Below the pieces are notes generated by a model, which was given only the letters and a program-made list of their open reading frames with translations, did not search any database and was not told the origin of the DNA. DNA of 64,000 nucleotides from NCBI GenBank assembly GCA_002441095.1, contig DJVG01000034.1, positions 61,072 to 125,071 on the forward strand, given 5' to 3'. Both the position numbers and the translations under genes were made by a program. Numbering within the stretch: the stretch's first letter is position 1; the number at the start of each line of letters is the position of its first letter. Shown piece after piece: positions 22,881-61,572 of the stretch. The DNA is from Elusimicrobia bacterium UBA6262. Its GTDB lineage: Bacteria; CAYTYR01; UBA6262.

Positions 22881-23004
22881 AACTACTCCTAAGAGAAAAA
22901 TAAGTCCTATCTTTAAAAGCAGTTTTAAGTTTAAAGTTGAAAGTGTTAAGTTTCGGTAATATTATTGATATAATAACCTTAACTTAAAACTTTACACTTT
23001 TAAC
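22881..23004. repeat. family-D AT-rich palindromic element (AAGTTTAAAGT / ACTTTAAACTT-like arms)
   Basis: aagtttaaagttgaaagtgttaagttt...cttaacttaaaactttacacttttaacttataactt between rfbD and rfbB. Confidence 0.6.
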
Positions 23005-23973
23005 TTATAACTTTTTTTCTTTTAACTTCTTCCACCATTGCTGATTTTCTTTATACCAATCAATGGTTTCTTTTAATGCCTGGTTGAAATCATGCTGGGG
23101 TTTCCAACCCATTTCGCTCCTCAGCTTGAAACAATCCAAGGCATAACGGCGGTCATGACCCAGCCGGTCAGTAACTGGCTGAATAAATTCATCATTTTTG
23201 CCTAACAGCTCCAGGATCTTTTTGGTTAGCTCAATATTAGCCAGCTCATTGCTGCCGCCAATATTATAAATTTCTCCAGCCTTACCCTTGTGCATCACCT
23301 GGTCGATAGCTTCGCAGTTATCCAGTACATAAACCCAATCCCGCACATTCTGGCCGTCGCCATATAGGGGCACCGGCTTTTCTTCCAAAATATTAGTGAT
23401 AAAAAGAGGTATTACTTTTTCCGGAAACTGGTACGGCCCGAAATTATTACTGGAACGGGTGATTATGACCGGCAATTGATAGGTAGCGAGATAGGATAAA
23501 GCCAGCAGGTCAGCACTCGCCTTAGAAGCTGAATACGGGCTTGAAGGCTTCAGGTTGTCTGCTTCTTTGAACGCTCCTTTTTCGATAGACCCATAAACTT
23601 CATCTGTCGAGATCTGGATGAATTTGCTGATATTATTCTTTTTAGCTGCTTCCAATAAGGTATAAGTCCCGAACACATTGGTTTTAATAAAATCACCGGC
23701 ACTGACAATAGAGCGGTCAACATGGGTTTCCGCTGCAAAATTAACGATAACCTGGGTTTCTTTTACCCATTTAGCGACTATTTTAGGATCAGCAATATCA
23801 CCTTTGACAAATCTATAGCGCTTATTTTTCTTCAGGTCTGCTAAATTTTCCAAATTACCCGCATAGGTTAATTTATCCAAATTAATAATTTCATAATCAG
23901 GATATTTCTTCAGTATATGCCTGATAAAGTTAGACCCTATGAATCCTGCCCCACCCGTAATTAATAGCCTCAT
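23005..23973 (-). CDS. rfbB: dTDP-glucose 4,6-dehydratase
   Basis: [16 protein letters not shown]...; RmlB length and motifs. Confidence 0.85.
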   Translation of the reverse strand: MRLLITGGAGFIGSNFIRHILKKYPDYEIINLDKLTYAGNLENLADLKKNKRYRFVKGDIADPKIVAKWVKETQVIVNFAAETHVDRSIVSAGDFIKTNVFGTYTLLEAAKKNNISKFIQISTDEVYGSIEKGAFKEADNLKPSSPYSASKASADLLALSYLATYQLPVIITRSSNNFGPYQFPEKVIPLFITNILEEKPVPLYGDGQNVRDWVYVLDNCEAIDQVMHKGKAGEIYNIGGSNELANIELTKKILELLGKNDEFIQPVTDRLGHDRRYALDCFKLRSEMGWKPQHDFNQALKETIDWYKENQQWWKKLKEKKL

Positions 23974-23994
23974 GGAAGTACACTCCTGTTTTGT

Positions 23995-24135
23995 TGTCGC
24001 TAGTCTCTAGTCGCTGGTCGCTAGTCTAAATACAGTCTCTGGTTACTAGTTTCTGGTCGCTAGTTCTTATGGTATTATTATTTGCTCTAATGCTTTTACT
24101 AGCAACTAGATACCAGCGACTAGCGACTGTCTTTA
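23995..24135. repeat. family-E palindromic element (GTCGCTAGTC / GACTAGCGAC arms)
   Basis: gtcgctagtctctagtcgctggtcgctagtc...ctggtcgctagttc / ctagcaactagataccagcgactagcgactg. Confidence 0.7.
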
Positions 24136-24152
24136 AACCAGCTACTGTTTCA

Positions 24153-24614
24153 CTACCATCCTTTTTTGTCCTGCCAAGGTTCGTACGGCACTTCTTTAGA
24201 ATCCAGGGTGATACGATGCTCATCCGGCTGCTTATAATTATACAATTGGTTGGGCACATTCATGATCCAGGCTTCATCCGCTGAAAGACACTCAAATCCA
24301 TGGACCACCCCCTCTGGGATGACCAAAGCCTGTGGTTTTTCAGAACTCAATTCAAACTCGTTGATCTCGTTTTTTGTCGCTGAGCCTGCTCTCCTGTCAA
24401 ACAGGACAATTTTAGCTTTGCCGCGCAGGGCACAAAAATAATCCTGCTGTTGCAAGTGGTAATGCCACCCTTTGACCCATCCTGGTTTGCAGATAGTGAT
24501 ATACGTCTGGCCGAAAGCCTTGAATTCAGGATAATCGTTACGCAATATTTCAAACAAAGCTCCCCGCTCATCCTGATGCACCACCAGGTCCTTCAGCACC
24601 ACTCCATTTATCAT
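24153..24614 (-). CDS. rfbC: dTDP-4-dehydrorhamnose 3,5-epimerase (short form)
   Basis: RmlC cupin: HQDERG..FE..R......F.Q...S....V.RG.H. Confidence 0.75.
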   Translation of the reverse strand: MINGVVLKDLVVHQDERGALFEILRNDYPEFKAFGQTYITICKPGWVKGWHYHLQQQDYFCALRGKAKIVLFDRRAGSATKNEINEFELSSEKPQALVIPEGVVHGFECLSADEAWIMNVPNQLYNYKQPDEHRITLDSKEVPYEPWQDKKGW

Positions 24615-24671
24615 ATACAGAACCTCTTCTTTTTTCCTATACGCTAAACGCTACCCGCTATACGCCGCCTT

Positions 24672-25733
24672 CTAAAGCACTTCAATCTTCGAACTATCCC
24701 CGACCATGAGGCGGTAGGCCTGCGGCCGGGAATGGGACTTCTTGACTTCCACATTCTGTCCGATCAGGCTGTCTTCAATTCTCTTGATATCAATAATGTG
24801 GCTGTTTTCCAGGACAATGCTATGCTCTATCTCGCTTGATTCAATACAGGCACCGAAATAGATTGCCGAGTACGGGCCCACATAAGAGTTAATCACCTTG
24901 GCATTTTCGCCGATTATGGCCGGCCCCCGGATCACGCTATTTTCAATGACCGCTCCCTTTTCAATAACCACTTTGCCTTCTATTTTTGATTTAGCATCGA
25001 CCCGGCCATCGTTCTTGAAAGTAAATGTATCCAATATAATGCTGTTTGCTTCCAGCATGTCTTCCAGTTTGCCTGTGTCTTTCCACCAGCCGGTAATAAC
25101 ATGCGGATGTACCTTCATCTTGGTATCAATGAGGTATTGGATGGCATCCGTGATTTCCAATTCATTTCGGATGCTTGGCTTAATATTGTCAACCGCCTCG
25201 AAAATCGACTGGTCGAACATATAAACGCCGCACAAAGCCAGGTCACTGCGGGGATGTTTTGGTTTTTCTTCCAATCGTACTATCCGGCCTTCGAGCAATT
25301 CAGCCACTCCGAACTGCTCCGGATGCGGCACATGGGCCAGTAAGATCTGGGCGTTTGGCTTTTTAGCTTCAAATTCTTCGACCAGGGACTTTATCCCGTC
25401 TTTGATCAGGTTATCTCCCAGATACATGACAAAACTGTCCTGCCCGATAAATTTCCGGGAGATCTTGACGGCATGAGCTAATCCTAAAGGCTCATCTTGT
25501 TCAATATAGGTGATCTTTACGCCCCACTTACTGCCGTCGCCGACCGCCTGCCTGATCTCATCTTTTGTCTCACCTATCACAATACCAATATCAACGATGC
25601 CTGCTTCCTTGATCGCTTCAATACCATAAAACAGTATCGGTTTATTAGCGATCGGGATCAATTGCTTGGCATTGGTATGGGTAATGGGCCGGAGCCTGGT
25701 CCCTTTGCCCCCGCTGAGTATTAACGCCTTCAT
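24672..25733 (-). CDS. rfbA: glucose-1-phosphate thymidylyltransferase (long form with C-terminal LbH domain)
   Basis: MKALILSGGKGTRLRPITHTNAKQLIPIANKPI; 353 aa. Confidence 0.75.
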   Translation of the reverse strand: MKALILSGGKGTRLRPITHTNAKQLIPIANKPILFYGIEAIKEAGIVDIGIVIGETKDEIRQAVGDGSKWGVKITYIEQDEPLGLAHAVKISRKFIGQDSFVMYLGDNLIKDGIKSLVEEFEAKKPNAQILLAHVPHPEQFGVAELLEGRIVRLEEKPKHPRSDLALCGVYMFDQSIFEAVDNIKPSIRNELEITDAIQYLIDTKMKVHPHVITGWWKDTGKLEDMLEANSIILDTFTFKNDGRVDAKSKIEGKVVIEKGAVIENSVIRGPAIIGENAKVINSYVGPYSAIYFGACIESSEIEHSIVLENSHIIDIKRIEDSLIGQNVEVKKSHSRPQAYRLMVGDSSKIEVL

Positions 25734-25750
25734 TGAAATACCTCTACATA

Positions 25751-25842
25751 GTTGCGAGTTTCCAGTTGCGAGTTGCGAGTTAAAAAACCTGACCTTGATC
25801 TTTTATTGTTTAACCGCGAACTGCGAACTGCCAACCGCGAAC
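25751..25842. repeat. family-A element variant (3x AGTTGCGAGTT then GCGAACT repeats)
   Basis: agttgcgagtttccagttgcgagttgcgagtt...aaccgcgaactgcgaactgccaaccgcgaacc. Confidence 0.65.
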
Positions 25843-25847
25843 CGTTT

Positions 25848-26807
25848 TTATATTTTCTCGCGCCAGTAATTCAGCAAGTCTTCCATCGTCTGCTTGAACG
25901 GGATCTCTGGTTTCCACCCGGTTTGTTTCCTGAACTTAGAGTTGTCGCCATAGAGTATCATTACATCGCTCGGCCGTAGCCTGGTTGGATCCTCTTTTAC
26001 TTTGATCTGATCCTTCATTTTGGAAAAACCGATCAAAGTGCTGAGCATATCTTTAATGCTGATGGTGGTATTGGAGCAAATATTATAGACTTCCCCAGGC
26101 TCGCATTTTTCTGTGGCCAACCAGTAGCCGCGGACTATGTCGCGCACATCAGTGAAGTCCCGCTTGGCATCCAGGTTGCCGACAGAAATGACCGGCTCAC
26201 GCTTGCCCTTCTCTATTTCCGCGATCTGTTTGGCAAAATTACTGGTCACAAAATTCTCGCCGCGGCGCGGGCCGGTATGGTTAAAAGCCCGGGTACGCAC
26301 GGTCTTCAGTTTATAGCTCTGGCAGTACTGGTATCCTAACAGGTCCTGGGCTACCTTACTCACTGCATACGGGGAAAGAGGCCGTAATTGATTGGTCTCT
26401 TTGATCGGCACTTCATCAGGATAGACCATCCCGTATTCCTCACTGGAACAGGCTAATTGTATCCAGGGATCAAGCTTTAGTTGCCGGACTGCCTCAAAAA
26501 TATTTAATTGTCCGAGAATATTGGTATTAAGTGTCTCGGCCGGAGCATTCCAGCTGGTGGGGACAAAACTTTGGGCAGCCAGGTGAAATATTTTTTCAGG
26601 CCTGGTCTTGTCCAGCACTTTCATCACCGAACTAAAATCAGTCATATCAAATTCCAGGTATTCAAACTGGCCCAGTAAATGATTAAGATTATCTTTCTTG
26701 GTATACCAGCGGTCCACCCCGACTATCTCTACATTCTTCTGTTTTAACAAAAATTCAACCAGATGGCTGCCGACAAATCCTGCTACTCCTGTAATTAAGC
26801 ATTTCAT
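25848..26807 (-). CDS. NDP-sugar dehydratase/reductase SDR (Gmd/Rmd-like)
   Basis: CLITGVAGFVGSHLVEFLL; 319 aa; adjacent to the GDP-fucose and dTDP-rhamnose genes. Confidence 0.55.
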   Translation of the reverse strand: MKCLITGVAGFVGSHLVEFLLKQKNVEIVGVDRWYTKKDNLNHLLGQFEYLEFDMTDFSSVMKVLDKTRPEKIFHLAAQSFVPTSWNAPAETLNTNILGQLNIFEAVRQLKLDPWIQLACSSEEYGMVYPDEVPIKETNQLRPLSPYAVSKVAQDLLGYQYCQSYKLKTVRTRAFNHTGPRRGENFVTSNFAKQIAEIEKGKREPVISVGNLDAKRDFTDVRDIVRGYWLATEKCEPGEVYNICSNTTISIKDMLSTLIGFSKMKDQIKVKEDPTRLRPSDVMILYGDNSKFRKQTGWKPEIPFKQTMEDLLNYWREKI

Positions 26808-26827
26808 ACTGCTCTACTCCTCCTCTT

Positions 26828-29116
26828 CTATTTTCTCCTGATATTCCATTCTTCTTCCATCACATTGCCGGTGACGCGCTGGGAGTGGATAAAACTCATT
26901 TTCCGTTCCGGGAACACTTTCAGGTTAAACCGCACCCAAAATTCTTCTTCCAGCTGGTATTTAGTCCAGGATAACAGCATTTCCCAGCAATGCAGGTCAC
27001 GGAACAACTGCACACTGCGTTCAGTGATCCTCGTCCCGGTTATTCTGAGCTGGTCATTGCTCAGCTGGTACTTGGTATGGACATTCAGTTTCCAGTTCTC
27101 GGAGAGCCAGAAACCAACATCATTTTGGACATCCAGGCTGCCTGGCACACTTTTTAAATAGCTGGTCAGGAGACCTACACTCCACCGGTTCCTGGCCAAA
27201 CGCAGGTCTGTACTTACCCGCTGGGTATTATGAGCTATTATATTATATTCCTCTGTTCCGCTAAGAGTGATCCAGTCATTAGGAGTAAGGGTTAATGTGT
27301 TCACCAGGTTACTGAACCGTTCCTTCCGGTTGACCGGGAAATAACCATTATGAATCAAGTTATAGCTGACGCTGGTGCGGAACCTGAGCAACTGCTTCCG
27401 CGTATATACGATCACCGGATCAGCCGTCGAATATTTTTGCAGTATTAAATCTACATTGTAACCAGGCGCATACCGGCTTAATTCCCGGCTCAAGACGTCC
27501 AGCTGCGGGACCGTCATCGTGACTGGCCGCGCCTTTCTGGGACCTAAGTTTGAATCTTGGATTTGCCAGGGATATTTTTCCGATATCTCCGGTAAAGCTT
27601 TGGCTGTTTTAATTTTCCGGGCAAACCTGAATTCAAAAGCAGTAGAAGCCAGATTGGAGATCACGCCCCTGACCTCATTCGGCCTGGCCTTAAATTCCTC
27701 GGCATAACTATGACCCAAGTCCCAATCAAGATTATCAGTCACCCGGGTACGCAGGTTCAAGTTGGTAAAATACTGGGTGCGCAAAACATTCCTGGTATCC
27801 TGCAGGTCAATCCTGTCCTGCCACAGTTCACGCAAACCGATTTGCGGTGTCAAAGACATGTTGCGGGTAAGGCCCAGCCTATTGGTCAGTGTAACATTGG
27901 TATTTCCATCCCAGAGATAATATCCCTGGCTTTGGGTATACCCTCTTTTAGTCTCCAGGTTATACGTAAAATATAACGGCGCTCTGCGCGAATAGCTCCA
28001 GGGCAGGCGCAGCTGGTTGGTACTAAAGCTTACCCGCGGCGCATAGACATAGTCTGGCTTATATTTTTGTTCTGCTTCGTTCCAAAGTTCGCGTCTTTCT
28101 CCTAGGATCCTGAAGGTATAGGTTTTTTCCAGCTTGCTCAAGGCTAAAAATGAAGTAATATCATTATTTACCTGGCGCCAGGCTTCTTCCTCATAACGCT
28201 TCTGGAAGGTCTGGTCACTTTGCACCTTCACATTAGCCTGGGCAATCCAGGTCGGGTCCAGCCGCTGCCAGTGGGATATCACGGCATTCCAGCGGGATGC
28301 TTCCGGCAAGACCGGCGGTTCCAGCCGCTCTCGCTGGCGAATATGGTAATAGTACCAGGAGCCATTCATCCGGTCAGGATAATTATATTCAACCTGCGCG
28401 CCCTTGCCCCAGCCCAGATATTCCATATAATCAAGGTATAGTTTCCCGTATATATTATCAGTTAAAGGATAACCATATACTATCTTGGCAAAATCACCTT
28501 CCGTGCTATTGTGGCCGACATAAATATTCAAGGTGTATTTCTTTTTTTTCAATGACTGGTAATAGACCGGGAAATACAATACCGGGAGGTCCCCGATGTA
28601 GAACCGGGCATGATGACAGATCAAATATTTCTTTGGGTACACCGCGATCCGGCTGGCCCTGATCTGAAAGTGCGGATTTTCCAGGTCACAGGTAGTCATA
28701 TAGCCTGTGGGCAGGTACATTTTTTCCGCTCCCTGGCGTTCCATTTTCGGCCCGGTGATGTACCATTTATAGGCATATAATTTCCCGTAAGAAAGAACAC
28801 CCTGTTTGGTTTTCAGGTTATAGGTTACTTCATGCCCGCTTAAATCCTGGTCTTTATCTTTGCCTACAACGTGCCCGACCGCAGTCACAGTTTCTTCTTT
28901 TACATTGTAAAAGATCTCATCTGCCTCTAAATACATATCCCCGGAGGTTACCTGGACATGGCCGGCACCGTACACCAGGTCTTGTTGTTTCTGGTATTCG
29001 AGGTAATCAGCTTTGATATCAACAGTGTCTTCTGCTTCTTCAGCAGCTGCCTCTACTAAAAAAAAAGAACTGAGGATTATTAAAAAGGCAATTATGCCTC
29101 TTACTTTATTAGCCAT
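26828..29116 (-). CDS. lptD: LptD-like outer-membrane LPS-assembly protein
   Basis: Signal peptide, an N-terminal OstA/LptA-like domain (ADYLEYQKQQDLVYGAGHVQV...EADEIFYN) and a large C-terminal beta-rich region of 762 aa. Confidence 0.55.
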   Translation of the reverse strand: MANKVRGIIAFLIILSSFFLVEAAAEEAEDTVDIKADYLEYQKQQDLVYGAGHVQVTSGDMYLEADEIFYNVKEETVTAVGHVVGKDKDQDLSGHEVTYNLKTKQGVLSYGKLYAYKWYITGPKMERQGAEKMYLPTGYMTTCDLENPHFQIRASRIAVYPKKYLICHHARFYIGDLPVLYFPVYYQSLKKKKYTLNIYVGHNSTEGDFAKIVYGYPLTDNIYGKLYLDYMEYLGWGKGAQVEYNYPDRMNGSWYYYHIRQRERLEPPVLPEASRWNAVISHWQRLDPTWIAQANVKVQSDQTFQKRYEEEAWRQVNNDITSFLALSKLEKTYTFRILGERRELWNEAEQKYKPDYVYAPRVSFSTNQLRLPWSYSRRAPLYFTYNLETKRGYTQSQGYYLWDGNTNVTLTNRLGLTRNMSLTPQIGLRELWQDRIDLQDTRNVLRTQYFTNLNLRTRVTDNLDWDLGHSYAEEFKARPNEVRGVISNLASTAFEFRFARKIKTAKALPEISEKYPWQIQDSNLGPRKARPVTMTVPQLDVLSRELSRYAPGYNVDLILQKYSTADPVIVYTRKQLLRFRTSVSYNLIHNGYFPVNRKERFSNLVNTLTLTPNDWITLSGTEEYNIIAHNTQRVSTDLRLARNRWSVGLLTSYLKSVPGSLDVQNDVGFWLSENWKLNVHTKYQLSNDQLRITGTRITERSVQLFRDLHCWEMLLSWTKYQLEEEFWVRFNLKVFPERKMSFIHSQRVTGNVMEEEWNIRRK

Positions 29117-29119
29117 TGC

Positions 29120-30082: not shown

Positions 30083-30122
30083 TGAAATACAAATTCAAAA
30101 TTCTAATATCGAAATTCTAAAT

Positions 30123-31241: not shown

Positions 31242-31313
31242 TTTACTCTCCTTTTTAAATACGATTACACAGATTATAAATACAGATTACACAGATTCAA
31301 GATGGAGTTAATT

Positions 31314-32600: not shown

Positions 32601-32810
32601 CTACGATCCCTTTATAACTTCGGTTATCAGTTTATCAGGCTATCAGGAAGTGGTTATCAGGTTAATAAAGCTTCAGGATAACAGGCTATCAGAAGATCAG
32701 GACATCAGGAAATGCTTGATACTATGACTTTCTGATTCCCTGTTAACCTGATTCCCTGATACACTGGTTCCCACTTCCTGGTCTCCTGATTACCTGATCT
32801 CCTTTACTGT
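32601..32810. repeat. 210-bp imperfect palindrome built from about 9 ATCAGG and about 6 CCTGAT hexamer copies
   Basis: Seen directly: ggttatcag/tttatcagg/ctatcagg/...gatcagg/acatcagg on the left arm, mirrored by tccctgat/acctgat/ctcctgat on the right; ggaagtgg (32647) pairs with ccacttcc (32779). Confidence 0.7.
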
Positions 32811-33638: not shown

Positions 33639-33738
33639 CTCTAAATACAGTTGCGAGTTCCCGGTTTCAGGTTACGAGTTTTGATATATGCCTTGAATAA
33701 AAACCTTAACTCGCAACCCGCAACTCGAAACTTGTCAA
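33639..33738. repeat. family-A palindromic element (GTTGCGAGTT / AACTCGCAAC arms)
   Basis: agttgcgagttcccggtttcaggttacgagtttt ... aactcgcaacccgcaactcgaaac; near-identical architecture to 35816-35921. Confidence 0.75.
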
Positions 33739-34530: not shown

Positions 34531-34630
34531 ATTTAACCCTAGCTCTTAAGCTGTAGAAGTACAACAAGAAGTTCAGCAAGCTGTACAGCTGTAGAGAAGC
34601 AAACTTCTTTACAGCTTTATAGCTCTACAC
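34531..34630. repeat. family-C palindromic element (GCTGTAGAAG / CTTCTTTACAGC)
   Basis: aagctgtagaagt...agctgtacagctgtagagaag...cttctttacagct; a second copy lies at 45957-46065. Confidence 0.65.
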
Positions 34631-35815: not shown

Positions 35816-35921
35816 CTAAACCTCAAAAGAAGTTGCGAGTTTCCAGTTTCAAGTTGCGAGTTTTGGATAAATGCTTTTTAAATAATAAACCTTAACTCGC
35901 AAACTCGTAATCCGCAACCTG
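35816..35921. repeat. family-A palindromic element
   Basis: agttgcgagtttccagtttcaagttgcgagtttt...ccttaactcgcaaactcgtaatccgcaacctgtcaact. Confidence 0.75.
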
Positions 35922-36602: not shown

Positions 36603-36625
36603 CGCATTAGTGGCGGGTAATCGTT

Positions 36626-37999: not shown

Positions 38000-38011
38000 A
38001 AAATAGTTTTT

Positions 38012-38800: not shown

Positions 38801-38911
38801 AAGTTAAACCTAATCTCCAAATCTAAATAACAAAATCCAAATAAAGTCCAAAATCCCAATCTTAAATATTTTTTAATGATTATTGGGTTTTTATTTGTCA
38901 TTTGACATTTG

Positions 38912-39991: not shown

Positions 39992-40037
39992 CTTTGATTT
40001 TAACTGCTATCCGCCGACTGCGAACTGCCAACGGCCC

Positions 40038-40193
40038 TTACTTTTCCGCTTCTTCTACCAGCATGACGGGGATGCCGTCCTTAATCGGATATTTCTTGCC
40101 GCATTTCTGGCAGATGATCTTATTATCTTTTTCTACGACATTACCTTTGCAATCAGGGCAAGCCATAATTTCCAGTAAACTTTTTTCAACCAT
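40038..40193 (-). CDS. Trm112/UPF0434-family small zinc-ribbon protein
   Basis: 51-aa ORF MVEKSLLEIMACPDCKGNVVEKDNKIICQKCGKKYPIKDGIPVMLVEEAEK, found by hand translation; too short for the ORF track. The CPxC...CxxC plus IP.ML motif is typical of the family. Confidence 0.55.
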   Translation of the reverse strand: MVEKSLLEIMACPDCKGNVVEKDNKIICQKCGKKYPIKDGIPVMLVEEAEK

Positions 40194-40202
40194 GATTCCC
40201 CC

Positions 40203-40766: not shown

Positions 40767-40827
40767 TTTACACCTCTACACCTTTACACCTGACATTCAG
40801 CTTTCAGCATTTAGCATTCAGCTGTTC

Positions 40828-42318: not shown

Positions 42319-42671
42319 CTTAACCTCATATTATTTAATTAGTATTTTCCGTGTATCAGGTAACTGTCACTATTTGTTCGCTCCAGTGTCGATTTTTAGC
42401 GTCAAAGGTCTTGCGTCAACTCGGTGCCGAGAAACTCGCCCCTTGGGCTCAGACAATCTCGGCATCCAGCAGCCAAAGATACCCTCGTTGCTTGCAAGCA
42501 TGCTTTGACTAAAATCGACAAGCTCGCTCAAAATAATGACAAGTTCCCTGATCTGTATGGTTGCCGTTATCATCAGAGTAACTGGGGGTGGCGAGGGTTT
42601 GATTTTTGCCAGGGTTATTGATGCTTTTGTCCCGATATAGTTATATCGGGAAGACAGGACCCCAAGTAAAC
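42319..42671 (-). ncRNA. 353-nt trpE 5' leader containing blocks conserved with the polA leader (family F); function unknown
   Basis: Blocks gtatcaggtaactgtcactatttgtt (42353-42378), caaaggtctt (42403-42412) and cgacaagctcgctcaaaataatgacaagttccctgatctgta (42516-42557) recur at 60220-60405. A perfect hairpin cccgatata..tatatcggg sits at 42631-42650. Confidence 0.4.
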
Positions 42672-43061
42672 CTATTTCTTATATACTTTCTCAGGATCAA
42701 AGACCCTTTTACCTTTTACTTTCAATTTTCCTTTTTCCAGTACCCGGTAAAAACAACTCTTAAACCCGGTGTGGCAGGCTGCCCCGCCTACTTGTTCTAT
42801 CTTTATCACCAGCGCATCACCGTCGCAATCAAGGCAAACTTGCTTTACCTTCTGGATATTGCCGCTGGTCTCGCCTTTCAACCAGTATTTGTGACGTGAG
42901 CGTGACCAGTACCAGCATTGCTTATCGCGCAGGGTGCGCTTGAGCGCTTCCTTATCCATATAAGCCAGCATCAGGATATCACCTGTTTTGTAATCCTGTA
43001 ATACTGCCGGCACTAAACCATTCTTGTCAAACTTCACTTGCCTTAAAATAACCTGGGTCAT
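42672..43061 (-). CDS. hisI: phosphoribosyl-AMP cyclohydrolase (monofunctional, no HisE fusion)
   Basis: 129 aa; ...[10 protein letters not shown]...C.GD. Confidence 0.85.
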
Positions 43062-43828: not shown

Positions 43829-43902
43829 AGCGTTAAGCGGGTAGCGTTTAGCGTATAGAAAATCTTTTAAAACTATCCGCTATACGCCATACGCTATACG
43901 CC
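43829..43902. repeat. family-B palindromic element (TATACGC / GCGTATA heptad arms)
   Basis: gcgttaagcgggtagcgtttagcgtatag-aaaatcttttaaaa-ctatccgctatacgccatacgctatacgcc. Confidence 0.75.
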
Positions 43903-44322: not shown

Positions 44323-44494
44323 GCTTTACCCCTTTGAAGCTCAACTTCATCCCGATAGGATAATTATAATTCCTATCGGGGAATGAACTATATTTTTTCA
44401 ATTTTCTATTTCTCAAAATTCTCTGTGAATTAATCCCCGCGTTTAGATTCGCAAAGCGAATCTGCTGGGGATATAAACCTTAAATTATTTTTAT

Positions 44495-45223: not shown

Positions 45224-45284
45224 ACTCCTAAAGATTACACAGATTATTAAAAGATCCGCCAGAGGCGGACAGGGATTACACAGA
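45224..45284. repeat. family-K element: two GATTACACAGATTA copies flanking a ccgccagaggcgg hairpin
   Basis: GATTACACAGATTA at 45233-45246 and 45274-45287; the second copy supplies the hisH stop codon. The same 14-mer occurs twice at 31261-31296. Confidence 0.7.
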
Positions 45285-45956
45285 TTACTTACATAATCTC
45301 ACAAAATTACGCAGGATCTGTAAGCCTATTTTTTGGCTCTTCTCCGGGTGGAACTGGCAGGCAAAAAGATTCCCTTTGGCAATTGAAGAACAAAATTCAA
45401 CGCCATAATCCGTAGTCGTAGCGATAATATTTTTATCTTTGGGCCTCACATAATACGAATGCACGAAATATACATAAGCATTATTTGGAATATTTTGTAA
45501 TATTTTTAGATTTTTACTTCCTGCACGCTGTACGCTATACGCTATACGCTGATTTATTTGATTCCACCCCATGTGGGGGATCTTTAAACCTGTCACGGGT
45601 TGCGGGTCGCGAGTCGCGAGTTTAGAGAAATTGAAGCGGGGGACAGTGCCTTTAACAATACCAAGGCCTTTACAGCCGCCGCCTTCTTCACTGGTCTCAA
45701 ACAGCAGTTGCAATCCCAGGCAGATACCCAGAAAAGGCTTATCCGCAGCAATAGTTTTCTTGATACTGCTGATCACTTTGGCCTTTTGCAGGGCTTGCAT
45801 GGCATCCGGCATCGCTCCTACGCCAGGCAGGACCACGCCAGAAGCTTTATTTATTATATCGGGGCTGGCTGTGATCTTAACTTCGGCCCCCAAACTTTCC
45901 AGGGCTTTGGCGACACTGCGCAGATTCCCCATCCCGTAATCGATTATGGCAATCAT
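45285..45956 (-). CDS. hisH: imidazole glycerol phosphate synthase glutaminase subunit
   Basis: GMGNLRSV...GICLGLQLLF...HMGWNQ...FVHSYY. 223 aa against about 196 typical, with two repeat-derived in-frame segments. Confidence 0.85.
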   Translation of the reverse strand: MIAIIDYGMGNLRSVAKALESLGAEVKITASPDIINKASGVVLPGVGAMPDAMQALQKAKVISSIKKTIAADKPFLGICLGLQLLFETSEEGGGCKGLGIVKGTVPRFNFSKLATRDPQPVTGLKIPHMGWNQINQRIAYSVQRAGSKNLKILQNIPNNAYVYFVHSYYVRPKDKNIIATTTDYGVEFCSSIAKGNLFACQFHPEKSQKIGLQILRNFVRLCK

Positions 45957-46065
45957 TGCTTATTCCTTAGCTGTAAAGCTGTAGAAGTTCTGCCTCGAAG
46001 TCCGGCAAGATGTAAAGATATAGAGAGGCATGCTTCTTTACAGCTGTACATCTCTACAGCTGCTC
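45957..46065. repeat. family-C palindromic element
   Basis: gctgtaaagctgtagaagtt...cttctttacagctgtacatctctacagctg. Confidence 0.65.
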
Positions 46066-48877: not shown

Positions 48878-48897
48878 AGTAACTCCATAAAAAATTA

Positions 48898-48935
48898 TGT
48901 TTAGTTATTATACCATAAAATAGGTAAAATTGCGT
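48898..48935 (-). promoter_or_regulatory. putative his operon promoter (extended -10 TGgTATAAT)
   Basis: Minus strand reads cgcaattttacctattttaTGgTATAATaactaaac, about 30 nt upstream of the hisD ATG; the -35 is weak. Confidence 0.4.
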
Positions 48936-49098
48936 AGTTTCTGCTGAAAAAGTGCTTTCGTAGCGAAATTTTTAGTATCGAGCCGAAATAGAAGCTTATG
49001 AAGCGAGCATATCTATGGCAGTGATATGTAAGCTGAATAAACTTTTATTGCAGGCCGATAATGAAAATTGCAGCAGAAATCGACTTTTTCTGTAGAAA

Positions 49099-50364: not shown

Positions 50365-50469
50365 GTTCTAATTTCTAATTTCTAAACTCTAAACAATTTC
50401 AAAATTCTAATATTCAAAACGTTTTGAATTTTGGTAATTTAATATTGTTTAGGATTTCGAATTTAGTAT

Positions 50470-51348
50470 TTAGGATTTGTTCTTTGCTATTATTATTCTT
50501 TCAATTCCAGCATAATCTTTTTTAATCTCAATATTACTGAAAAGCTGCTCTTTTTCCAATAATTGCTTTATTTTCCCGGCTTGCCCATACCCTATCTCAA
50601 ACGCCAGTAAGCCTCCCGGCTGCAGGTAGTACCTGGCCTGGGGAATGATCTTGCGATAAAAATCCAGGCCGTCCTTCCCGCCATAAAGAGCGGCTTTTGG
50701 TTCATATCCGACTTCTGGCTGTAACGCAGCAAAATCTTTCTCAGTGACATACGGCGGATTAGACACGATAAAATCGAACTTTTCCTTCAGCCTGGCAAAC
50801 AAACTGCCCCTGATCAGTTTAACCTGTGTTTCTACCCGGTGTTTCTTAATATTTTTCCTGGCGATTCTGAGCGCTTTTGCCGAGGTATCTGTCCCTAGTA
50901 TGCTGGCCTGGTTCAAATTTTTAGCCAGGGCCACGACAATCGCCCCGCTCCCCACCCCAATCTCCAATATCTTTAGTTTACCAGCGACTAGCGACCAGCG
51001 ACTAGCGACTGCTTTTATTATTTCTTCTACCAGCAGCTCCGTCTCCGGCCGGGGAATGAGTACTCCTTTATTAATGAACAGGTCCAAGCCATAGAATTGC
51101 GCATTCTTTAAAATATAGCTAGCTGGTATCCTCTGGCGACGCAATACAATATATTTTTTGAAACACGTTAAGTCTTTTTTGGCTATTTCTTTTTCTTTTT
51201 TCAGGAACAGGTCCAGTTTTTTCATTCTCAGTGCCTGGGAAAGCAGCAACTGCGCTTCCAAAGCCGGCTCAGGCACCCTGGCTTGGGTTAATTGTTCAAT
51301 CCCCCATTCTAATAATGTGCTAATCCGAGAGCCATTTATAATACTCAT
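50470..51348 (-). CDS. prmC: peptide chain release factor N5-glutamine methyltransferase
   Basis: LIPRPETE...[11 protein letters not shown]...IVSNPPYV. Confidence 0.85.
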
Positions 51349-52418: not shown

Positions 52419-52537
52419 TTGAAACCTTTCTGTTGCGAATTACGCGAATTAAAAGACGCGAATTACACGAATGTTCTTATTCGAGGTATTCGCTGTCCTG
52501 CCTACCGGCAGGCAGGCATTCGAGTTATTCGTATTAT

Positions 52538-53473: not shown

Positions 53474-53525
53474 TATTTACTCCTCTACCCAAGTACCAAT
53501 ATCGGTTCCAGGGTATGTAATTAAA

Positions 53526-53556
53526 CAACAAGGACAGAGTTCATCTGTCCTTGTTG
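53526..53556 (-). terminator. putative rho-independent terminator downstream of rpmE
   Basis: Perfect 13-bp stem caacaaggacaga / tctgtccttgttg with loop gttca. On the minus strand it is followed by TTTAATT. Confidence 0.4.
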
Positions 53557-53576
53557 TTGGTACATATATGGATTAG

Positions 53577-53894: not shown

Positions 53895-53915
53895 GAACGT
53901 CTTCCTCCTCTTTTT

Positions 53916-53993
53916 AGCGGGTAGCGTTTAGCGGGTAGCGTATAGAAAATCAATATTCTTTTCCTATACGCTATACGCCATACGCTATACGCT
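53916..53993. repeat. family-B palindromic element
   Basis: gcgggtagcgtttagcgggtagcgtatag-aaaatcaatattctttt-cctatacgctatacgccatacgctatacgc. Confidence 0.75.
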
Positions 53994-54001
53994 GTTTTAT
54001 T

Positions 54002-55276: not shown

Positions 55277-55432
55277 AAATCCTTCCTCCTGGTAAAAATA
55301 AGATGTGCTAAAATCTATACTTACTGCAATAGACTGTTGGTTAACGATTTTTTAGGGGTTTTGAGAATTGCTTGCAAATGGAGAGAACTCCTGTAGGTAA
55401 AAAAAGCAGTATTGCCATTTGTATTTGTATAA

Positions 55433-55462
55433 AGTATACCTGAAAACCCTTGATTCGTCAAG
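55433..55462 (-). promoter_or_regulatory. putative rho promoter (TTGACG-17-TATACT) with a 150-nt leader
   Basis: Minus strand reads TTGACGaatcaagggttttcaggTATACT; the -35 overlaps the coaE stop. The leader contains the gcaaatgg...ccatttgc hairpin. Confidence 0.45.
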
Positions 55463-56039: not shown

Positions 56040-56056
56040 GGCAAACCTTTCCCGGC

Positions 56057-56136
56057 GGCGTAAAGCGTATGGCGTATAGCGGATAGTAAGAAGAAATTGT
56101 TTTCTATACGCTACCCGCTAAACGCTATCCGCTATC
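56057..56136. repeat. family-B palindromic element
   Basis: gcgtaaagcgtatggcgtatagcggatag-taagaagaaattgttttc-tatacgctacccgctaaacgctatccgc. Confidence 0.75.
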
Positions 56137-56137
56137 T

Positions 56138-56959: not shown

Positions 56960-57007
56960 ATAACCTCAAAAGAAGTTGCGGGTTTCGAGTTGCGTGTTGC
57001 GAGTTAT

Positions 57008-57397
57008 CTAAACATTAACTTTATAACTGTTCTCCTGTTCTTTTGGTATTTCTAAAGGTGTTGTTTCCTCATATCCGCGTTGGGAAAACAGGAATAATAA
57101 AGCAATCAGCATCGGCACTAGTCCGTTAAATAAATTAATGCTGGATAGCCTGCCCAAACGGTAGCAATATACGACAAATACAAATCCCTCGGCAAAAAGC
57201 CAGGCTCCTCCTGCTACTGGTTTGCGCAAAGCAATCATTACCGTAAGCGTAAGTATCAAGCCGCCAGCCAAGTCAGCCAGATAATACCAAGAACTGATAT
57301 ACTCTTCGTTCACAAACTGCCCGGTAATGACAACTAGCCATAAAATAGCTATGAACAAGCCGGCAAAACTAGCTAACCAATAGATTAGTTTACGCAC
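57008..57397 (-). CDS. hypothetical small membrane protein
   Basis: 129 aa with 3-4 TM. Confidence 0.4.
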   Translation of the reverse strand: MRKLIYWLASFAGLFIAILWLVVITGQFVNEEYISSWYYLADLAGGLILTLTVMIALRKPVAGGAWLFAEGFVFVVYCYRLGRLSSINLFNGLVPMLIALLFLFSQRGYEETTPLEIPKEQENSYKVNV

Positions 57398-57531
57398 AAT
57401 TACTCCTATATCACGATGATCGGTGTACGGTTACGACGCCCGATTAAAGATTTTGTTTCGGGTTTCGTATCCGTTTACCGTGAGCCGAGCATTTAATTCG
57501 GGTTTCGTATCCGTATATCGTATACCGAGTT

Positions 57532-60192
57532 TCATTCCAGGTCTCTCCAATTGGTGCCGACGCTGACATTGGCCTCTAAAGGTACATCCAGTTTTAAGGC
57601 TGTTTCCATTTCCTGCTTGATCATCTTGGTTAACTGCTTCTCTTCTGCTTTTGGCACTTCAAATATCAGTTCATCGTGAACCTGCAGCAGCATTTTCGCC
57701 TGGAAGGTTTCCTGCTTCAGTTTTTTAGCTATATTGATCATCGCAATCTTGATAATATCCGCGGCTGTCCCCTGGATCGGCATATTGATCGCTACCCGCT
57801 CGGCAAAAGAGCGGATGTTCCTGTCCTTGGCATTAATTTCCGGCAGGTATCTCCGGCGGTTCAGCAGGGTCGTGACAAAACCGTCATGCCGGGCTTTTTC
57901 CACTATCTTTTCCATATATTCTTTTACGCCACTGAAACGGGCAAAGTATTTATCAATATAATCCTTGGCTGTTGCTGCGTCTATACCCAAGGCCTGGGAT
58001 AGTCCATACGGGCTCATGCCATAGGAAAGGCCAAAGTTAACTGTTTTGGCTATGCGTCTTTTTTCATCATCTACTTCCTCTGGTTTCAAGCCGAATATCT
58101 CACACGCGGTATGGCTATGGATATCTTCATGGTTATGGAATGCCTGCTTCATATGTTCATCGCCAGACATATGCGCCAATACCCGCAGGTCGATCTGCGA
58201 GTAGTCGGCAGACACAAATATACATCCTTCTTTGGGAATGAACGAGCGCCTGATGGACCGCCCGATCTCGGTCCGGATCGGGATATTCTGCAGGTTCGGC
58301 TCGCTGGAGGATAATCTCCCGGTATTGGTCACGGTCTGGTTAAATGAAGTGTGCAACCGGCCGGTTTTGGGATTGATCATTTCCGGTATCGGATCAATAT
58401 AGGTTGATTTAAGCTTGGCCAGCTCCCGGTATTCAATTATTCTCTTCGGCAGATCATGCATAGCCTGCAGTTGGCGCAGGACTGATTCATTGGTTGACGC
58501 GCCGGTTTTGGTTTTTTCTATGATCGGCAGTCCCAGTTTTTCAAAAAGGATCTTGGATAATTGCTGGGGTGAGTTAATATTAAACTCAGTATCAGCTATT
58601 TTGTAGATCACCTGTTCCAAAGCAACAATTTTCCCATCGATCTCTTTGGATAATTCTTTCAGGTATGGCAGGTCCACCAGTATCCCCGCGTATTCCATCC
58701 CTGCCAGGATCTCCAGCACCGGCATTTCTACGTCATAGAATAACTTATCCAGTCCTTTTTCTTTGAGCAAGAATGATAGTTTCTGTTTTAACCGCCAGAC
58801 CATATCCACCTGGGCACAGGCATATTCGCTAACTCTTTCCACCTGCACCTGGTCCATAGTGATCTGTTTGGCCCCTTTGCCGATCAGGTCTGTGATCGGG
58901 ATCATTTTATATTGCATATATTCAGCAGAGATATCCCCCAGACTGTGGTTAAGTTTGGATGGATTGATGAGATAAGAAGCGATCATAGTATCAAAAGATA
59001 TACCATTCAGTTTCAGGCCTTCATTTTTCAGGACCAGCAGGTCATATTTCAGGTTTTGCCCGTATTTCTTTATCTGCTCATCTTCAATAATGGATTTAAG
59101 CAGGTCCAGGGTTTTCTTTTTATCTTGAGCTGGGGCACCCAGGTAGTTGTGAGCCACGGGTAGGTAATATGCTTTTTTTTCTTCAAAACATAATACCAGG
59201 CCAACTATTTCCGCCAACATGGGCTCGCTGCTATTGGTTTCCAGGTCAATAGAAACTTCATTTTTCTGCTTTATTTGGGAGGCGATCTTTTCCATCTCGG
59301 CTGATGTAGTAATAACTTCATAGCACGCGTCTTTTTCCGTGCTCTGATCGATCAATTCAGTAGTCAAGGACTTGAATTCATATTTATGGAACAAAGCCAT
59401 GGCTTTTTCCTGGTCCAAAGGGACTGGTTTCAGGTCTTCCAAGGTCATATTGAGCGGCACATTTTCTACCAAGGTCACCAACTCTTTTGATTTAAAAGCC
59501 AGTTCCTTGCCTGCCTCCATTTTATTCTTTACTTTAGCCGGCATTTTGTCCAGGTTCTGATACATATTCTCAATAGTCCCGAATTCTTTTACCAGCTGCA
59601 AAGCGGTTTTTTCCCCTATGCCTGGTACTCCAGGAATATTGTCGCTGGAGTCGCCGCATAAGCCTAAATAGTCTTTGATCTTATCAGCGTCAAACCCAAA
59701 TTTTTCCTGCACTTCCTTTTCAGTGAAAAGTACTCCCTTGGGCTCGCTCAGTACTTTGATATGTTCATCTACCAGCTGGAGTATATCTTTATCCCCGCTG
59801 ACCACAACCACATCCACATCCTGCTTTTCTGCTTGCCGGGCAATAGTAGCGATCAGGTCATCAGCTTCATAGCCAGGCATCCGGAAAACCGGTATCTTGA
59901 ATGCTTCTACCATTTCCTGGACCATGGGTATCTGCGTTTTTAGTTCAGCAGGAGTTTCCTTGCGGGTAGCTTTATACTGTTCGAAGGCTTTGTGCCGGAA
60001 AGTCGGATGCGGGGAATCAAAGCAAACTGCCAGGTAATCAGGCTGTTCACGCTTAATTATCTTGAGAAGCATGCGGGTAAAACCATAGACGGCATTGATC
60101 ACCAGGCCTTGGGAATTGGTGAGCATCGGGAGGGCATGGAACGCGCGGTGGATATAGGCATGTCCATCTATGATATAGAGTTTCTTTTTCAA
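57532..60192 (-). CDS. polA: DNA polymerase I
   Basis: 5' nuclease, 3'-5' exo-like and Pol A motifs (RRxAKxxNFGxxYG -> RRIAKTVNFGLSYG); TTG start preceded by GAGG. Confidence 0.9.
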   Translation of the reverse strand: MKKKLYIIDGHAYIHRAFHALPMLTNSQGLVINAVYGFTRMLLKIIKREQPDYLAVCFDSPHPTFRHKAFEQYKATRKETPAELKTQIPMVQEMVEAFKIPVFRMPGYEADDLIATIARQAEKQDVDVVVVSGDKDILQLVDEHIKVLSEPKGVLFTEKEVQEKFGFDADKIKDYLGLCGDSSDNIPGVPGIGEKTALQLVKEFGTIENMYQNLDKMPAKVKNKMEAGKELAFKSKELVTLVENVPLNMTLEDLKPVPLDQEKAMALFHKYEFKSLTTELIDQSTEKDACYEVITTSAEMEKIASQIKQKNEVSIDLETNSSEPMLAEIVGLVLCFEEKKAYYLPVAHNYLGAPAQDKKKTLDLLKSIIEDEQIKKYGQNLKYDLLVLKNEGLKLNGISFDTMIASYLINPSKLNHSLGDISAEYMQYKMIPITDLIGKGAKQITMDQVQVERVSEYACAQVDMVWRLKQKLSFLLKEKGLDKLFYDVEMPVLEILAGMEYAGILVDLPYLKELSKEIDGKIVALEQVIYKIADTEFNINSPQQLSKILFEKLGLPIIEKTKTGASTNESVLRQLQAMHDLPKRIIEYRELAKLKSTYIDPIPEMINPKTGRLHTSFNQTVTNTGRLSSSEPNLQNIPIRTEIGRSIRRSFIPKEGCIFVSADYSQIDLRVLAHMSGDEHMKQAFHNHEDIHSHTACEIFGLKPEEVDDEKRRIAKTVNFGLSYGMSPYGLSQALGIDAATAKDYIDKYFARFSGVKEYMEKIVEKARHDGFVTTLLNRRRYLPEINAKDRNIRSFAERVAINMPIQGTAADIIKIAMINIAKKLKQETFQAKMLLQVHDELIFEVPKAEEKQLTKMIKQEMETALKLDVPLEANVSVGTNWRDLE

Positions 60193-60618
60193 GGTAAAAA
60201 CCTCATTGTCTGGCTCTGCGTATCAGTGAACTGTCACTATTTGTTTCCGCCAAAGAGACTGGCGGACTCCCTCTGGTCGCGCTTGCCAAAGGTCTTTAAA
60301 CTCAATAATTGCTTCAGCCGCAGGCTGATCCGCCGATCTTTTTGGAGGATTTGGGCTGAAACACGACAAGCTCGCTCAAAATAATGACCAGTTCCCTGAT
60401 CTATACAGTGTATAAGAGGCGAGCGCGGCCGCTGATGTCGTGTAGAAAACCCTGCCTGCCGGCAGGCAGGGTTCGAGAGTCTTGAGTTGGCATGGACTCT
60501 TCATCCCCGTACTTTGGGGAACTCAAGCGAGAATTGAGTGCGTTTTCCTCGCAGGGGAAAACGACACGCTTTTCGGAACGACGCAGCGTGACAGCGAGCC
60601 CTATTATATCTTAATAAA
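60193..60618 (-). ncRNA. 426-nt polA leader / suhB trailer with blocks conserved with the trpE leader, plus several perfect hairpins; function unknown
   Basis: Blocks at 60220-60245, 60286-60296 and 60364-60405 match the trpE leader. Hairpins: ccgccaaagagactggcgg, ccctgcctgccggcaggcaggg, cgttttcctcgcaggggaaaacg. Confidence 0.4.
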
Positions 60619-61431
60619 TTAGTATTTATCAAAAACGACCCGGCAGTGGAAGTCTTTCAGCCGACGGACCAGTATTTTGCTCATCTGCGCATGGAGTAAC
60701 CCATTTGTGGCCAGGATCTCCTGGTCATAATGGGAATATTTACTGCCATTAAATTTGGACAGCTTCCCGCCGGCTTCTTTCACTACCAGGATAGCTGCCG
60801 CCGTATCCCAGGGCTTGAGACCGATTTCCCAGAATCCGTCAAAACGCCCGCAGGCCACATAGCACAGATCCAGCGCTGCAGACCCCATCCGGCGTATCGC
60901 CTGGGACGTCATCAAGAAATCAACAAAATGTTCGACATTGGAATCCCGGGCATCTTTAATTTCATAGGCAAACCCGGTACAGAGCAGGGATTTTTTCATG
61001 TCTTTGGTCTTGGAAACTTTTATTTTCTTTTTGTTTAGATAAGCGCCGCCGCCCTTGGTAGCATAAAAAAGTTCATTATGCATGGGGTCATAAACAACTC
61101 CGACTGCCGGCTGGCAGTTGATCTCCAGTGCGATCGAAACGCTGAAATACGGAAAGCCATGGGCAAAATTAGTTGTACCGTCTATCGGGTCAACGATCCA
61201 CCGGTAACCTTTTTTTTCCCTCTCGCCACCGCTTTCCTCACCTAAGAAGAGATGTTTGGGGAACTTTCTGAGGAGATGCTCTTTGATCAACCGTTCAGAT
61301 GCCTTGTCCACATCAGTGACCAGGTCAATCGCGCCTTTATAATTAATCGTTTTTATTTTCCCGACGCGCCGGCGGATCAATTCTCCGCTTTTCTTCGCCG
61401 CCGCAATCGCTTCTCCAAGAAATTTGTTCAA
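60619..61431 (-). CDS. suhB: inositol monophosphatase family protein
   Basis: WIVDPIDGTTNF metal-binding motif. Confidence 0.8.
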   Translation of the reverse strand: MNKFLGEAIAAAKKSGELIRRRVGKIKTINYKGAIDLVTDVDKASERLIKEHLLRKFPKHLFLGEESGGEREKKGYRWIVDPIDGTTNFAHGFPYFSVSIALEINCQPAVGVVYDPMHNELFYATKGGGAYLNKKKIKVSKTKDMKKSLLCTGFAYEIKDARDSNVEHFVDFLMTSQAIRRMGSAALDLCYVACGRFDGFWEIGLKPWDTAAAILVVKEAGGKLSKFNGSKYSHYDQEILATNGLLHAQMSKILVRRLKDFHCRVVFDKY

Positions 61432-61572
61432 ATTATGTCTCCTAAAAACAGTTTCGGGTTACGAGTTCCAGGTTGCGAGTTAAGGCTATACAACTATTGC
61501 TATTATAAAAATTATCAAAACTCGAAACGGGAAACCCGCAGACTGCCGAAGGCAGACAACTCGCAACTGTAT
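61432..61572. repeat. family-A palindromic element (long copy)
   Basis: cagtttcgggttacgagttccaggttgcgagtt ... aactcgaaacgggaaacccgcagactgccgaaggcagacaactcgcaactg. Confidence 0.7.

Follow-up and report, generated by a model that had tools for sequence, protein, structure and literature searches.

Inverted heptanucleotide arrays in the intergenic spacers of a co-directional 64-kb locus from an Elusimicrobia bacterium

The locus and its genes

The DNA considered here is a 64-kb stretch of contig DJVG01000034.1 from Elusimicrobia bacterium UBA6262, hereafter referred to as the window. It contains approximately 62 genes, all of which lie on the minus strand, and it has a G+C content of about 45% and a negative GC skew everywhere. 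The co-orientation of all genes described in an initial annotation of the same sequence is thereby confirmed. From 22.9 kb onwards, most of the larger gaps between these genes are occupied by elements of about 70-180 nt, which belong to at least ten families, mostly of seven-nucleotide (heptad) repeats, and which are frequently arranged as inverted arrays.

The region from 1 to 22.9 kb, plus rml genes up to 26.8 kb, is a polysaccharide biosynthesis cluster. Using protein profiles, folC, accD and the trp operon trpE-G-D-C-B2-F-B-A were identified, as were the his operon hisD-C-B-H-A-F-I and, following it, murA, prmC and prfA. Further genes are DUF1385, rpmE, rho, coaE, fpg, DUF7670, polA, inositol monophosphatase and rubrerythrin. 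A scan of the window for tRNA and tmRNA genes found none, and searching the entire window against Rfam 15 at gathering scores gave no matches. The DNA is metagenome-derived, and the window PolA is 100% identical to proteins encoded by an NCBI/ENA contig of 149.8 kb and by a Logan contig from SRR5323248. An assembly artefact can be rejected as the source of the elements, because the independent Logan contig and NCBI metagenome-assembled genomes (MAGs) carry the same elements.

Periodicity and anatomy of the elements

All repeat families listed in the initial annotation were found where it had placed them. Their common feature, which had not been named, is a period of 7 nt. Tandem Repeats Finder (TRF) reported a period of 7 or 14 in 34 of 65 rows. 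Across the 33 spacers of at least 30 nt in the whole window (4,027 nt, with 30 of the 33 lying between 22,881 and 62,294), the pooled self-match at lags of 7, 14 and 21 was 0.343, 0.319 and 0.295, against a baseline of about 0.26. The coding DNA of the window has no lag-7 self-match peak, the exceptions being three short in-frame arrays. When each spacer was compared with 200 dinucleotide shuffles, at most 1% of these matched the period-7 run of 17 out of the 30 spacers lying between 22,881 and 62,294, and for many spacers the hairpin folding energy gave a z score of -3 to -6.

By our own count, of the 26 spacers between 22.9 and 61.6 kb that measure 50 nt or more, 20 contain arrays or palindromes. 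The claim that nearly every spacer is built from such repeats therefore holds for these 20 spacers but is slightly overstated, as the spacers at 44323, 53474 and 55277 are without a repeat-family element, and a repeat of another kind, about 400 nt long, occupies those at 60193 and 42319. Heptad elements are missing from the rho leader, the hairpins after rpmE and the 44323 spacer. The density and diversity of the intergenic families are nevertheless unusual, as had been pointed out. No repeat elements were found in the first 22.8 kb of the window. Genes overlap or abut between 1 and 22880, where G+C dips to 35% at 8-10 kb, in sharp contrast with the remainder of the window.

Thirteen spacers are imperfect hairpins, in which the arms are inverted arrays of three to five heptads and the loop is 10-25 nt long, and five are single arrays (those starting at 24626, 30083, 40002, 40767 and 56974 in Table 1). 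The stems are interrupted, with helix segments mostly of 4-5 bp and a weak recurrence of unpaired positions at lags of 7 and 13-14. One palindrome (family L) has a period of 8 nt instead of 7, and family C is a palindrome without a tandem repeat. A heptad layout of four conserved and three variable positions, assessed over all window arrays, was indistinguishable from chance (p=0.37), and family B compared across genomes is the only case in which it applies.

Placement within operons

In the trp and his operons the elements stand directly between a stop codon and the next start, the position first proposed for them, and they must therefore be transcribed as part of the operon mRNAs. Hairpins start 0-8 nt past the upstream stop codon, and 4-48 nt (mostly 10-48 nt) are left between them and the next start. 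For 13 of 16, the Shine-Dalgarno sequence is contained in this single-stranded tail and is free of the hairpin. A reading of the elements as intrinsic terminators was rejected. No heptad hairpin was called as a terminator, and terminator-like sites in the window are not enriched relative to shuffles (25 vs 21.5 and 22 vs 21.5 expected). Only two GC mini-hairpins fit the terminator pattern of a GC-rich stem, a short loop and a U tract.

Heptad arrays can also occur in frame within genes. Those in hisH encode short inserts, e.g. 'QRIAYSVQRAG' and 'ATRDPQPVTG', and HisH exceeds its family profile by about 23 residues, while the array in prmC encodes a short insert of 11 residues. These arrays are of the B, A/E-like and E types, and their presence in hisH and prmC indicates that the process which generates them is not targeted to regulatory positions. 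The three in-frame arrays fit an untargeted mutational process that is filtered by selection.

Turnover among relatives

Relatives of the window, represented by polA loci with a PolA identity of 92% (L082 and L083), 87% (L084), 73% (L085 and L086) and 68% (L087), keep the gene order around polA but not the elements. The rho-rpmE spacer holds a family B hairpin in both the window and L082, and in L085 it is empty (26 nt). In the prmC-murA spacer the window has an AT-rich hairpin, L082 a CGAATAG-type hairpin, and L085 just 9 nt. Between the rubrerythrin and inositol-phosphatase genes lies family A in the window and family B in L082, and L085 has a single GATGGCA array there. Outside the window, the AIRC/Ni-insertion spacer carries GCGTATA in L082, AAGTTTT in L085 and GTAGTTA in L087.

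Filled, empty and family-replaced orthologous spacers thus exist among the relatives. Presence/absence polymorphism had been named at the outset as a check on mobility, and together with replacement it argues for copying between loci. Neither are the elements confined to this region or genome, since the loci of relatives and metagenome contigs carry such elements. The L082 and L083 assemblies are virtually identical, and their comparison is hence uninformative on slippage polymorphism.

Sequence constraint on family B

Eight copies of family B were aligned, four from the window and four from L082. Seven of them share a single design of about 75 nt, GCGTAnAGCGTATGGCGTATAGCGGATAG-loop-CTATACGCTACCCGCTAAACGCTATCCGCTA, including the unpaired arm positions and part of the loop, and the eighth, at 24615, retains the right arm only. 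Family B copies occur in both orientations relative to transcription, and paralogues within L082/L083 are 93-94% identical. In family A the 3' arm is kept, and all five copies have one orientation.

Orthologous family B elements of the window and L082 are 91% identical in the rho-rpmE spacer and 82% identical in the fpg-coaE spacer. In the same comparison, fourfold-degenerate sites are 54-75% identical (84% in rpmE), and two other heptad families are 53-60% identical. As the identity of family B orthologues is higher than that of fourfold-degenerate sites, the conservation of family B exceeds the neutral rate.

RNAalifold predicts 17 pairs for 16 family B copies from several genomes, all of them in the invariant AGCG/CGCT and TA positions. 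No compensatory changes were found in these pairs among the 16 copies. Two to three variable bases per heptad are unpaired in the model, and the combination of a conserved core and variable bases is seen across genomes. When sense and antisense folding were compared, the sense strand was more stable in only 9 of 17 cases (Wilcoxon p=0.41). Because covariation, a sense-strand bias and a terminator signature are all lacking, it is apparently the sequence of the phased cores, and not a helix in the mRNA, that is under constraint. Selection for large mRNA hairpins, as first envisaged, is not supported by these results or by the bidirectionality of family B.

Spread beyond the lineage

The family B arm pattern CTATACGCTAMMCGCTWMMCGCT was scanned exactly against JGI metagenome contigs and is present in at least 120 stretches. 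Among these, 80 returned loci have a G+C content of 30-63%. One of the 32 allowed arm variants, TATACGC-TAAACGC-TACCCGC, accounts for 38 of the 83 matches listed, in 28 of which the next unit is TATACGC. This dominant arm is the same 30-mer as is found in the window at 24626-24665. Such a skew among the variants points to common descent or constraint, not chance convergence. Period 7 is dominant among the tandem repeats of the returned loci (425 of 1,024 TRF rows), in which the heptads GATACGA, TATACTA, AACTCGA and GTTTTGA also recur.

One of these loci, L156, belongs to the Atribacterota. Its PolA is 84-97% identical to Atribacterota-named proteins and 45% identical to the window PolA. In L156 and a second, Atribacterota-like locus, L099 (both ~32% G+C), the genes are co-directional and essentially all of them are separated by spacers of 300-400 nt. 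In these spacers, palindromes from several heptad families are nested around a core of about 170 nt, which can have either orientation, and the spacers appear to make up a large fraction of the two loci.

As a background sample, we used Rho-protein loci from 80 species of many phyla, Rho being too conserved to single out relatives, and a strict inverted heptad pair was present in 4 of the 80. A similar architecture built of other heptads is seen in unrelated phyla. A Methylomirabilis MAG (L063), which is one of the four, has three clear GTTCAGA/GTTCATA hairpins within 10 kb (1931-2009, 3627-3720 and 8151-8236). Long CCCCTAT/TAGGGGA and GGCGTTA arrays occur in a Desulfacinum MAG (L046).

The repeats also break short-read assemblies. 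Several metagenome contigs end within a family B array, including the Logan contig L001 (SRR5323248; 4118-4149), as is expected of dispersed repeats that fragment assemblies.

Element catalogue and other repeats

The individual elements of the window are listed in Table 1.

Table 1. Repeat elements of the window, with positions counted from its first nucleotide. MFE, minimum free energy; z, z score of the MFE against dinucleotide shuffles.
Positions	Strand	Element	Location	Remarks
22929-23004	-	family D hairpin, AAGTTTA heptads	rmlD-rmlB spacer	z -5.1; period-7 run not reached by any shuffle
23996-24145	-	family E hairpin, GTCGCTA/TAGCGAC heptads		z -5.4
24626-24665	-	family B single arm, TATACGC-TAAACGC-TACCCGC-TATACGC		variant dominant in metagenome matches
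25750-25843	-	family A hairpin, AGTTGCG/AACTCGC heptads		
30083-30122	-	AT-rich heptad array, AAATTCT		
31256-31297	-	family K direct repeat, 22-nt unit GATTACACAGATTA		
32622-32802	-	family L long palindrome, 8-nt-period arms TATCAGGn	accD-folC spacer	MFE -75.9, z -6.2
33651-33738	-	family A hairpin	trpA-accD spacer	
34553-34628	-	family C palindrome, GCTGTAGAAG type	trpB-trpA spacer	not period 7
35830-35920	-	family A hairpin	trpF-trpB spacer	
38801-38911	-	AT-rich heptad hairpin, CAAATGA/ATTTGTC	trpD-trpC spacer	
40002-40029	-	single heptad array, GGCAGTT	downstream of small Trm112-like open reading frame	
40767-40827	-	two adjoining single arrays, GCTGAAT x4 (period 7) and AGGTGTAA x3 (period 8)	trpE-trpG spacer	
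43829-43902	-	family B hairpin, GCGTATA/TATACGC	upstream of hisF	
45224-45284	-	family K repeat	hisH-hisA spacer	broken by small GC-rich hairpin 45254-45270
45518-45622	-	two heptad arrays, ACGCTAT and GCGAGTC types	within hisH	in frame
45977-46061	-	family C palindrome	hisB-hisH spacer	spacer aligns with that at 34531-34630 at 85% mean column identity
50375-50466	-	AT-rich heptad hairpin, TTCTAAT/TTTAGGA	prmC-murA spacer	
50977-51017	-	family E array, AGCGACT x4	within prmC	in frame
52436-52531	-	CGAATAn heptad hairpin		contains family G mini-palindrome 52497-52516
53916-53993	-	family B hairpin	rho-rpmE spacer	L082 orthologue 91% identical
56064-56133	+	family B hairpin, opposite orientation	fpg-coaE spacer	
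56974-57005	-	family A single arm		
57402-57530	-	GATACGA-type heptad hairpin	polA-DUF7670 spacer	with 40-nt tandem duplication
61448-61570	-	family A hairpin	rubrerythrin/inositol-phosphatase spacer	with small GC hairpin 61541-61556

Small GC-rich palindromes (family G and similar) are nested in larger elements of the window and absent from the L082 orthologues. They lie at 52497-52516, 60450-60471, 45254-45270 and 61541-61556, with the sequences CCTGCCTGCCGGyAGGCAGG, GTCCGCCTCTGGCGGAT and TCTGCCTTCGGCAGTC, and two of them precede a T run in a terminator-like manner. A similar sequence, GGGGCAGACCTTGTGTCTGCCCC, recurs in L099.

A conserved repeat of about 400 nt is present upstream of polA (60193-60618), and its ends are inverted (…GCTGTCAC … GTGACAG…). 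In L082 it is reversed (9543-10000), with 82% mean column identity and long identical blocks, and a partial second copy lies upstream of trpE in the window (~42319-42560). The window repeat contains a family G mini-palindrome that the L082 copy is without. Searching the region 60150-60660 against Rfam at E values up to 1 gave no matches. The repeat may be a miniature inverted-repeat transposable element (MITE) or a non-coding RNA of a new type. The partial copy is overlapped by an open reading frame of 102 aa (42370-42678), which matches nothing in Pfam and is unlikely to be a gene. The repeats thus inflate the number of predicted open reading frames.

A smaller open reading frame of 51 codons lies between trpG and trpD (40038-40193). 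It has two CxxC pairs (MVEKSLLEIMACPDCKGN…CQKCGKKYPIKDGIPVMLVEEAEK) and appears Trm112-like by eye. It falls below the 80-aa minimum of the open reading frame list, and the real spacer after it is only about 46 nt.

The hairpin located directly after rpmE (AACAACAAGGACAGA…TCTGTCCTTGTTGTT; window 53474-53576) is kept in L082 (16570-16672) and L085 (16669-16733). Relatives conserve it down to a PolA identity of 73%, and in contrast to the heptad elements it is probably a true terminator or a regulatory structure. The murA-hisD spacer (48930-49098) holds an imperfect palindrome of about 170 nt without tandem repeats, which is missing from the same spacer in L082 and L085. Just upstream of hisD, the window, L082 and L085 share a promoter-like TTTACC-N-TGGTATAAT.

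Origin and possible roles of the elements

The explanation that we favour, and to which we give about an even chance, is one of dispersed palindromic repeats, selfish or recognised by a protein, that slippage has further shaped. To what can be observed directly (anatomy, periodicity, dispersal, both orientations, turnover, cross-phylum sharing, and sequence constraint with no covariation) it adds a copying mechanism, protein recognition, slippage and an effect on mRNA, all of which we infer. The elements would multiply and replace one another by copy-and-paste, either through transposition by a trans-acting protein or through conversion between copies. They would land in the only neutral gaps of a tightly packed co-directional genome, i.e. 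from a stop codon to the next Shine-Dalgarno sequence, and replication slippage would then alter the number of units and yield single arrays. The phased cores, which in family B are AGCG/CGCT every 7 nt, would be recognised by a sequence-specific protein, be it the mobilising enzyme or a host factor. As a secondary effect, transcribed elements would fold into hairpins broken approximately every 7 nt, which could serve as barriers or processing points like those of repetitive extragenic palindromic (REP) sequences. An influence on the decay or processing of mRNA, as with REP sequences, is plausible, and mRNA stabilisation and translational coupling or decoupling, as suggested in the initial annotation, are possible roles.

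Several observations weigh against this explanation. The eight family B borders and a comparison of filled with empty sites gave no target-site duplication and no common target motif. The heptad-array arms could serve as terminal inverted repeats like those of MITEs. The loops of family B differ more than its arms, an uncommon pattern for a unit that moves simply by cut-and-paste or copy-and-paste. Among the 40 profiled of the ~62 window proteins there was no transposase, REP-associated tyrosine transposase (RAYT) or other mobilising gene. Searches of 2.9 million viral contigs (with two patterns) and a plasmid collection (with one element) found no match, exact or near, and offer no explanation of the cross-phylum spread. 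The above-neutral conservation of family B orthologues could equally mean a host function, and the single orientation of family A would fit a strand-specific role at the RNA level.

Such a role is central to an alternative in which the elements are selected by the host as RNA, which we consider unlikely. They would then act as punctuation, resembling REP sequences and bacterial interspersed mosaic elements (BIMEs), that tunes the relative expression of cistrons in polycistronic mRNAs, whether as 3'-exonuclease barriers, as RNase processing sites or as phased sites of about 7 nt for an RNA-binding protein (candidates include a cold-shock protein, S1 or a HutP/TRAP-like oligomer). This agrees with the elements inside trp and his, which are placed directly past stop codons and leave the Shine-Dalgarno sequence free, with the conservation of family B both above the neutral rate and across phyla, and with the unidirectionality of family A in all copies. 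Families B and E also place UAG every 7 nt on the sense strand, and binding by S1, Csp or CsrA has been proposed for TAACTGA heptamer repeats (MacGregor, 2015; PMC4679880). However, the sense strand is no more stable than the antisense strand, family B shows zero compensatory covariation and is bidirectional, and a relative that shares the gene order has empty orthologous spacers. More than ten unrelated heptads would demand many specificities, and arrays are present within coding sequence too.

The strand symmetry, and the conservation of sequence as opposed to structure, would suit sites that act at the level of DNA. Here, paired inverted phased half-sites for a nucleoid-associated protein or global regulator would organise or insulate a co-directional chromosome, a layout matching that of Geobacter classes 1-3 with their opposite-strand pairs, three to five units of 7-9 nt and variable pair distance (PMC2700814). 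We regard this as quite improbable given the many unrelated families in one genome, their rapid turnover with replacement at the same site, and the 7-bp phasing, which sets successive sites on different faces of B-DNA. No candidate protein is known, and the Geobacter interpretation is itself a proposal. The chance is slim, too, that the elements have a purely local origin without copying between loci, in which arrays arise in place by polymerase slippage and palindromes by fold-back or template switching. A preference of slippage for 7-nt units has been suggested, and in many prokaryotes no long simple-sequence repeat is commoner than the heptamer (Mrazek, 2007, as summarised in PMC4679880 and PMC4692102). 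The dominance of period 7 in the repeat-rich loci examined, the single and in-frame arrays, the varying number of units, and heptads of different families that are one substitution apart all point the same way. What a local origin does not account for is that non-homologous loci hold near-identical copies, down to the succession of non-identical units and parts of the loop, that the same 30-mer is found in organisms of different phyla, and that one family is replaced by another between close relatives. The likeness to an integron cassette array, with palindromes as attC sites between co-oriented cassettes, is superficial and comes down to co-oriented genes that are often followed by an imperfect palindrome. 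This reading is effectively refuted and its probability negligible, as the genes are housekeeping genes (polA, rho, rpmE, prfA, trp and his) whose synteny is kept in relatives without the elements, the arms are tandem heptads, none of the family A arms inspected has a GTTRRRY core, and no integrase was found among the 40 profiled window proteins. A CRISPR reading was likewise rejected.

A more far-reaching reading, which we offer tentatively and think somewhat doubtful, can also be considered. The phased heptad arrays, such as TATACGC-TAAACGC-TACCCGC-TATACGC, would form a shared vocabulary read by dedicated protein machinery, and the whole would be a hitherto undescribed cross-phylum architecture in which almost every gene boundary of a co-directional genome is punctuated. 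The window may then be a mild example, with elements of 70-180 nt compared with the nested palindromes of 300-400 nt in Atribacterota. If true, cross-phylum arrays would represent either a general system for marking gene boundaries or handling mRNA, or mobile elements of a new class that are mobilised in a new way, and would be more than junk.

Comparison with known repeat systems

Heptanucleotide repeats have been familiar since the reports of short tandemly repeated repetitive (STRR) sequences in cyanobacteria, and no explanation of their origin and function is known. The heptads of the window are not known to resemble the STRR1-3 units. Nostoc small dispersed repeats (SDR), described by Elhai and colleagues in 2008, are reportedly nested in heptamer arrays and present or absent between relatives. 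The GC-rich mini-palindromes of the window would be similar in being nested in heptad elements and variable between relatives.

According to the summaries in PMC4679880 and PMC4692102, three heptanucleotide families have been reported in Calothrix. As far as these summaries describe them, the STRR sequences of Calothrix, Nostoc and Anabaena share with the window tandem 7-nt units, a mostly intergenic location, several dispersed families, and fast change in length and sequence. The window arrays differ in being mostly of three to five units, in being paired as inverted hairpin blocks, and in filling a large share of the intercistronic gaps. Moreover, the window comes from an uncultivated lineage, for which the nearest named relatives carry the label Elusimicrobiota, and not from a cyanobacterium.

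The initial annotation had suggested REP/BIME-like elements. In REPINs (hairpin-forming doublets of REP sequences) and their RAYTs (Bertels and Rainey, 2011; PMC3116915), short extragenic inverted doublets likewise form hairpins in single-stranded DNA or mRNA and exist in many dispersed copies, and decayed-looking singlets, nested clusters and differences between close strains are found as well. However, the REP unit is itself an imperfect palindrome of about 20 nt, whereas the window arms are arrays of tandem heptads without self-complementarity. Membership of the REP/REPIN group fails for this reason, and no RAYT accompanies the elements among the 40 profiled proteins. REPINs are still the closest functional analogy, spanning selfish spread and possible effects on mRNA.

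Heptamer arrays paired on opposite strands are known from Xanthomonas, where GGGAATC arrays form 70-75 convergent opposite-strand pairs per genome with the potential for stem-loops (Rehm et al., 2015; PMC4692102). They mostly have the same gene neighbours across species, are variable in length and sequence, and are mostly transcribed (PMC4692102). The Xanthomonas arrays are one G-rich, quadruplex-forming family; the window has more than ten families that are not G-rich, much denser locally and inside biosynthetic operons. In Geobacter metallireducens, classes 1-3 are opposite-strand paired sites with three to five tandem repeats of 7-9 nt (Aklujkar et al., 2009; PMC2700814). They are located between proB and proA and next to trpB2, among other places. 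G. sulfurreducens lacks them or has others in their place, and heptanucleotide elements occur within genes too. They have been proposed to be sites for IHF/HU or a global regulator (PMC2700814). Their sequences are different, and they number tens of pairs per 4-Mb genome, as against most spacers in the window.

The literature searched holds no description of such repeats in Atribacterota or Elusimicrobiota. The locus and its relatives form an unusually clean comparative system, with many families, filled, empty and replaced sites, a conserved family and an arm shared with Atribacterota. With it one can ask which protein families vary together with array density across MAGs, and whether the arrays are selfish or serve the host. 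The locus is best read as a dense, multi-family form of the heptanucleotide repeats already described as STRR sequences and as the paired arrays of Xanthomonas and Geobacter. What is new is the density, the number of families, their position in core biosynthetic operons, their turnover, and a family B arm that is near-identical between phyla.

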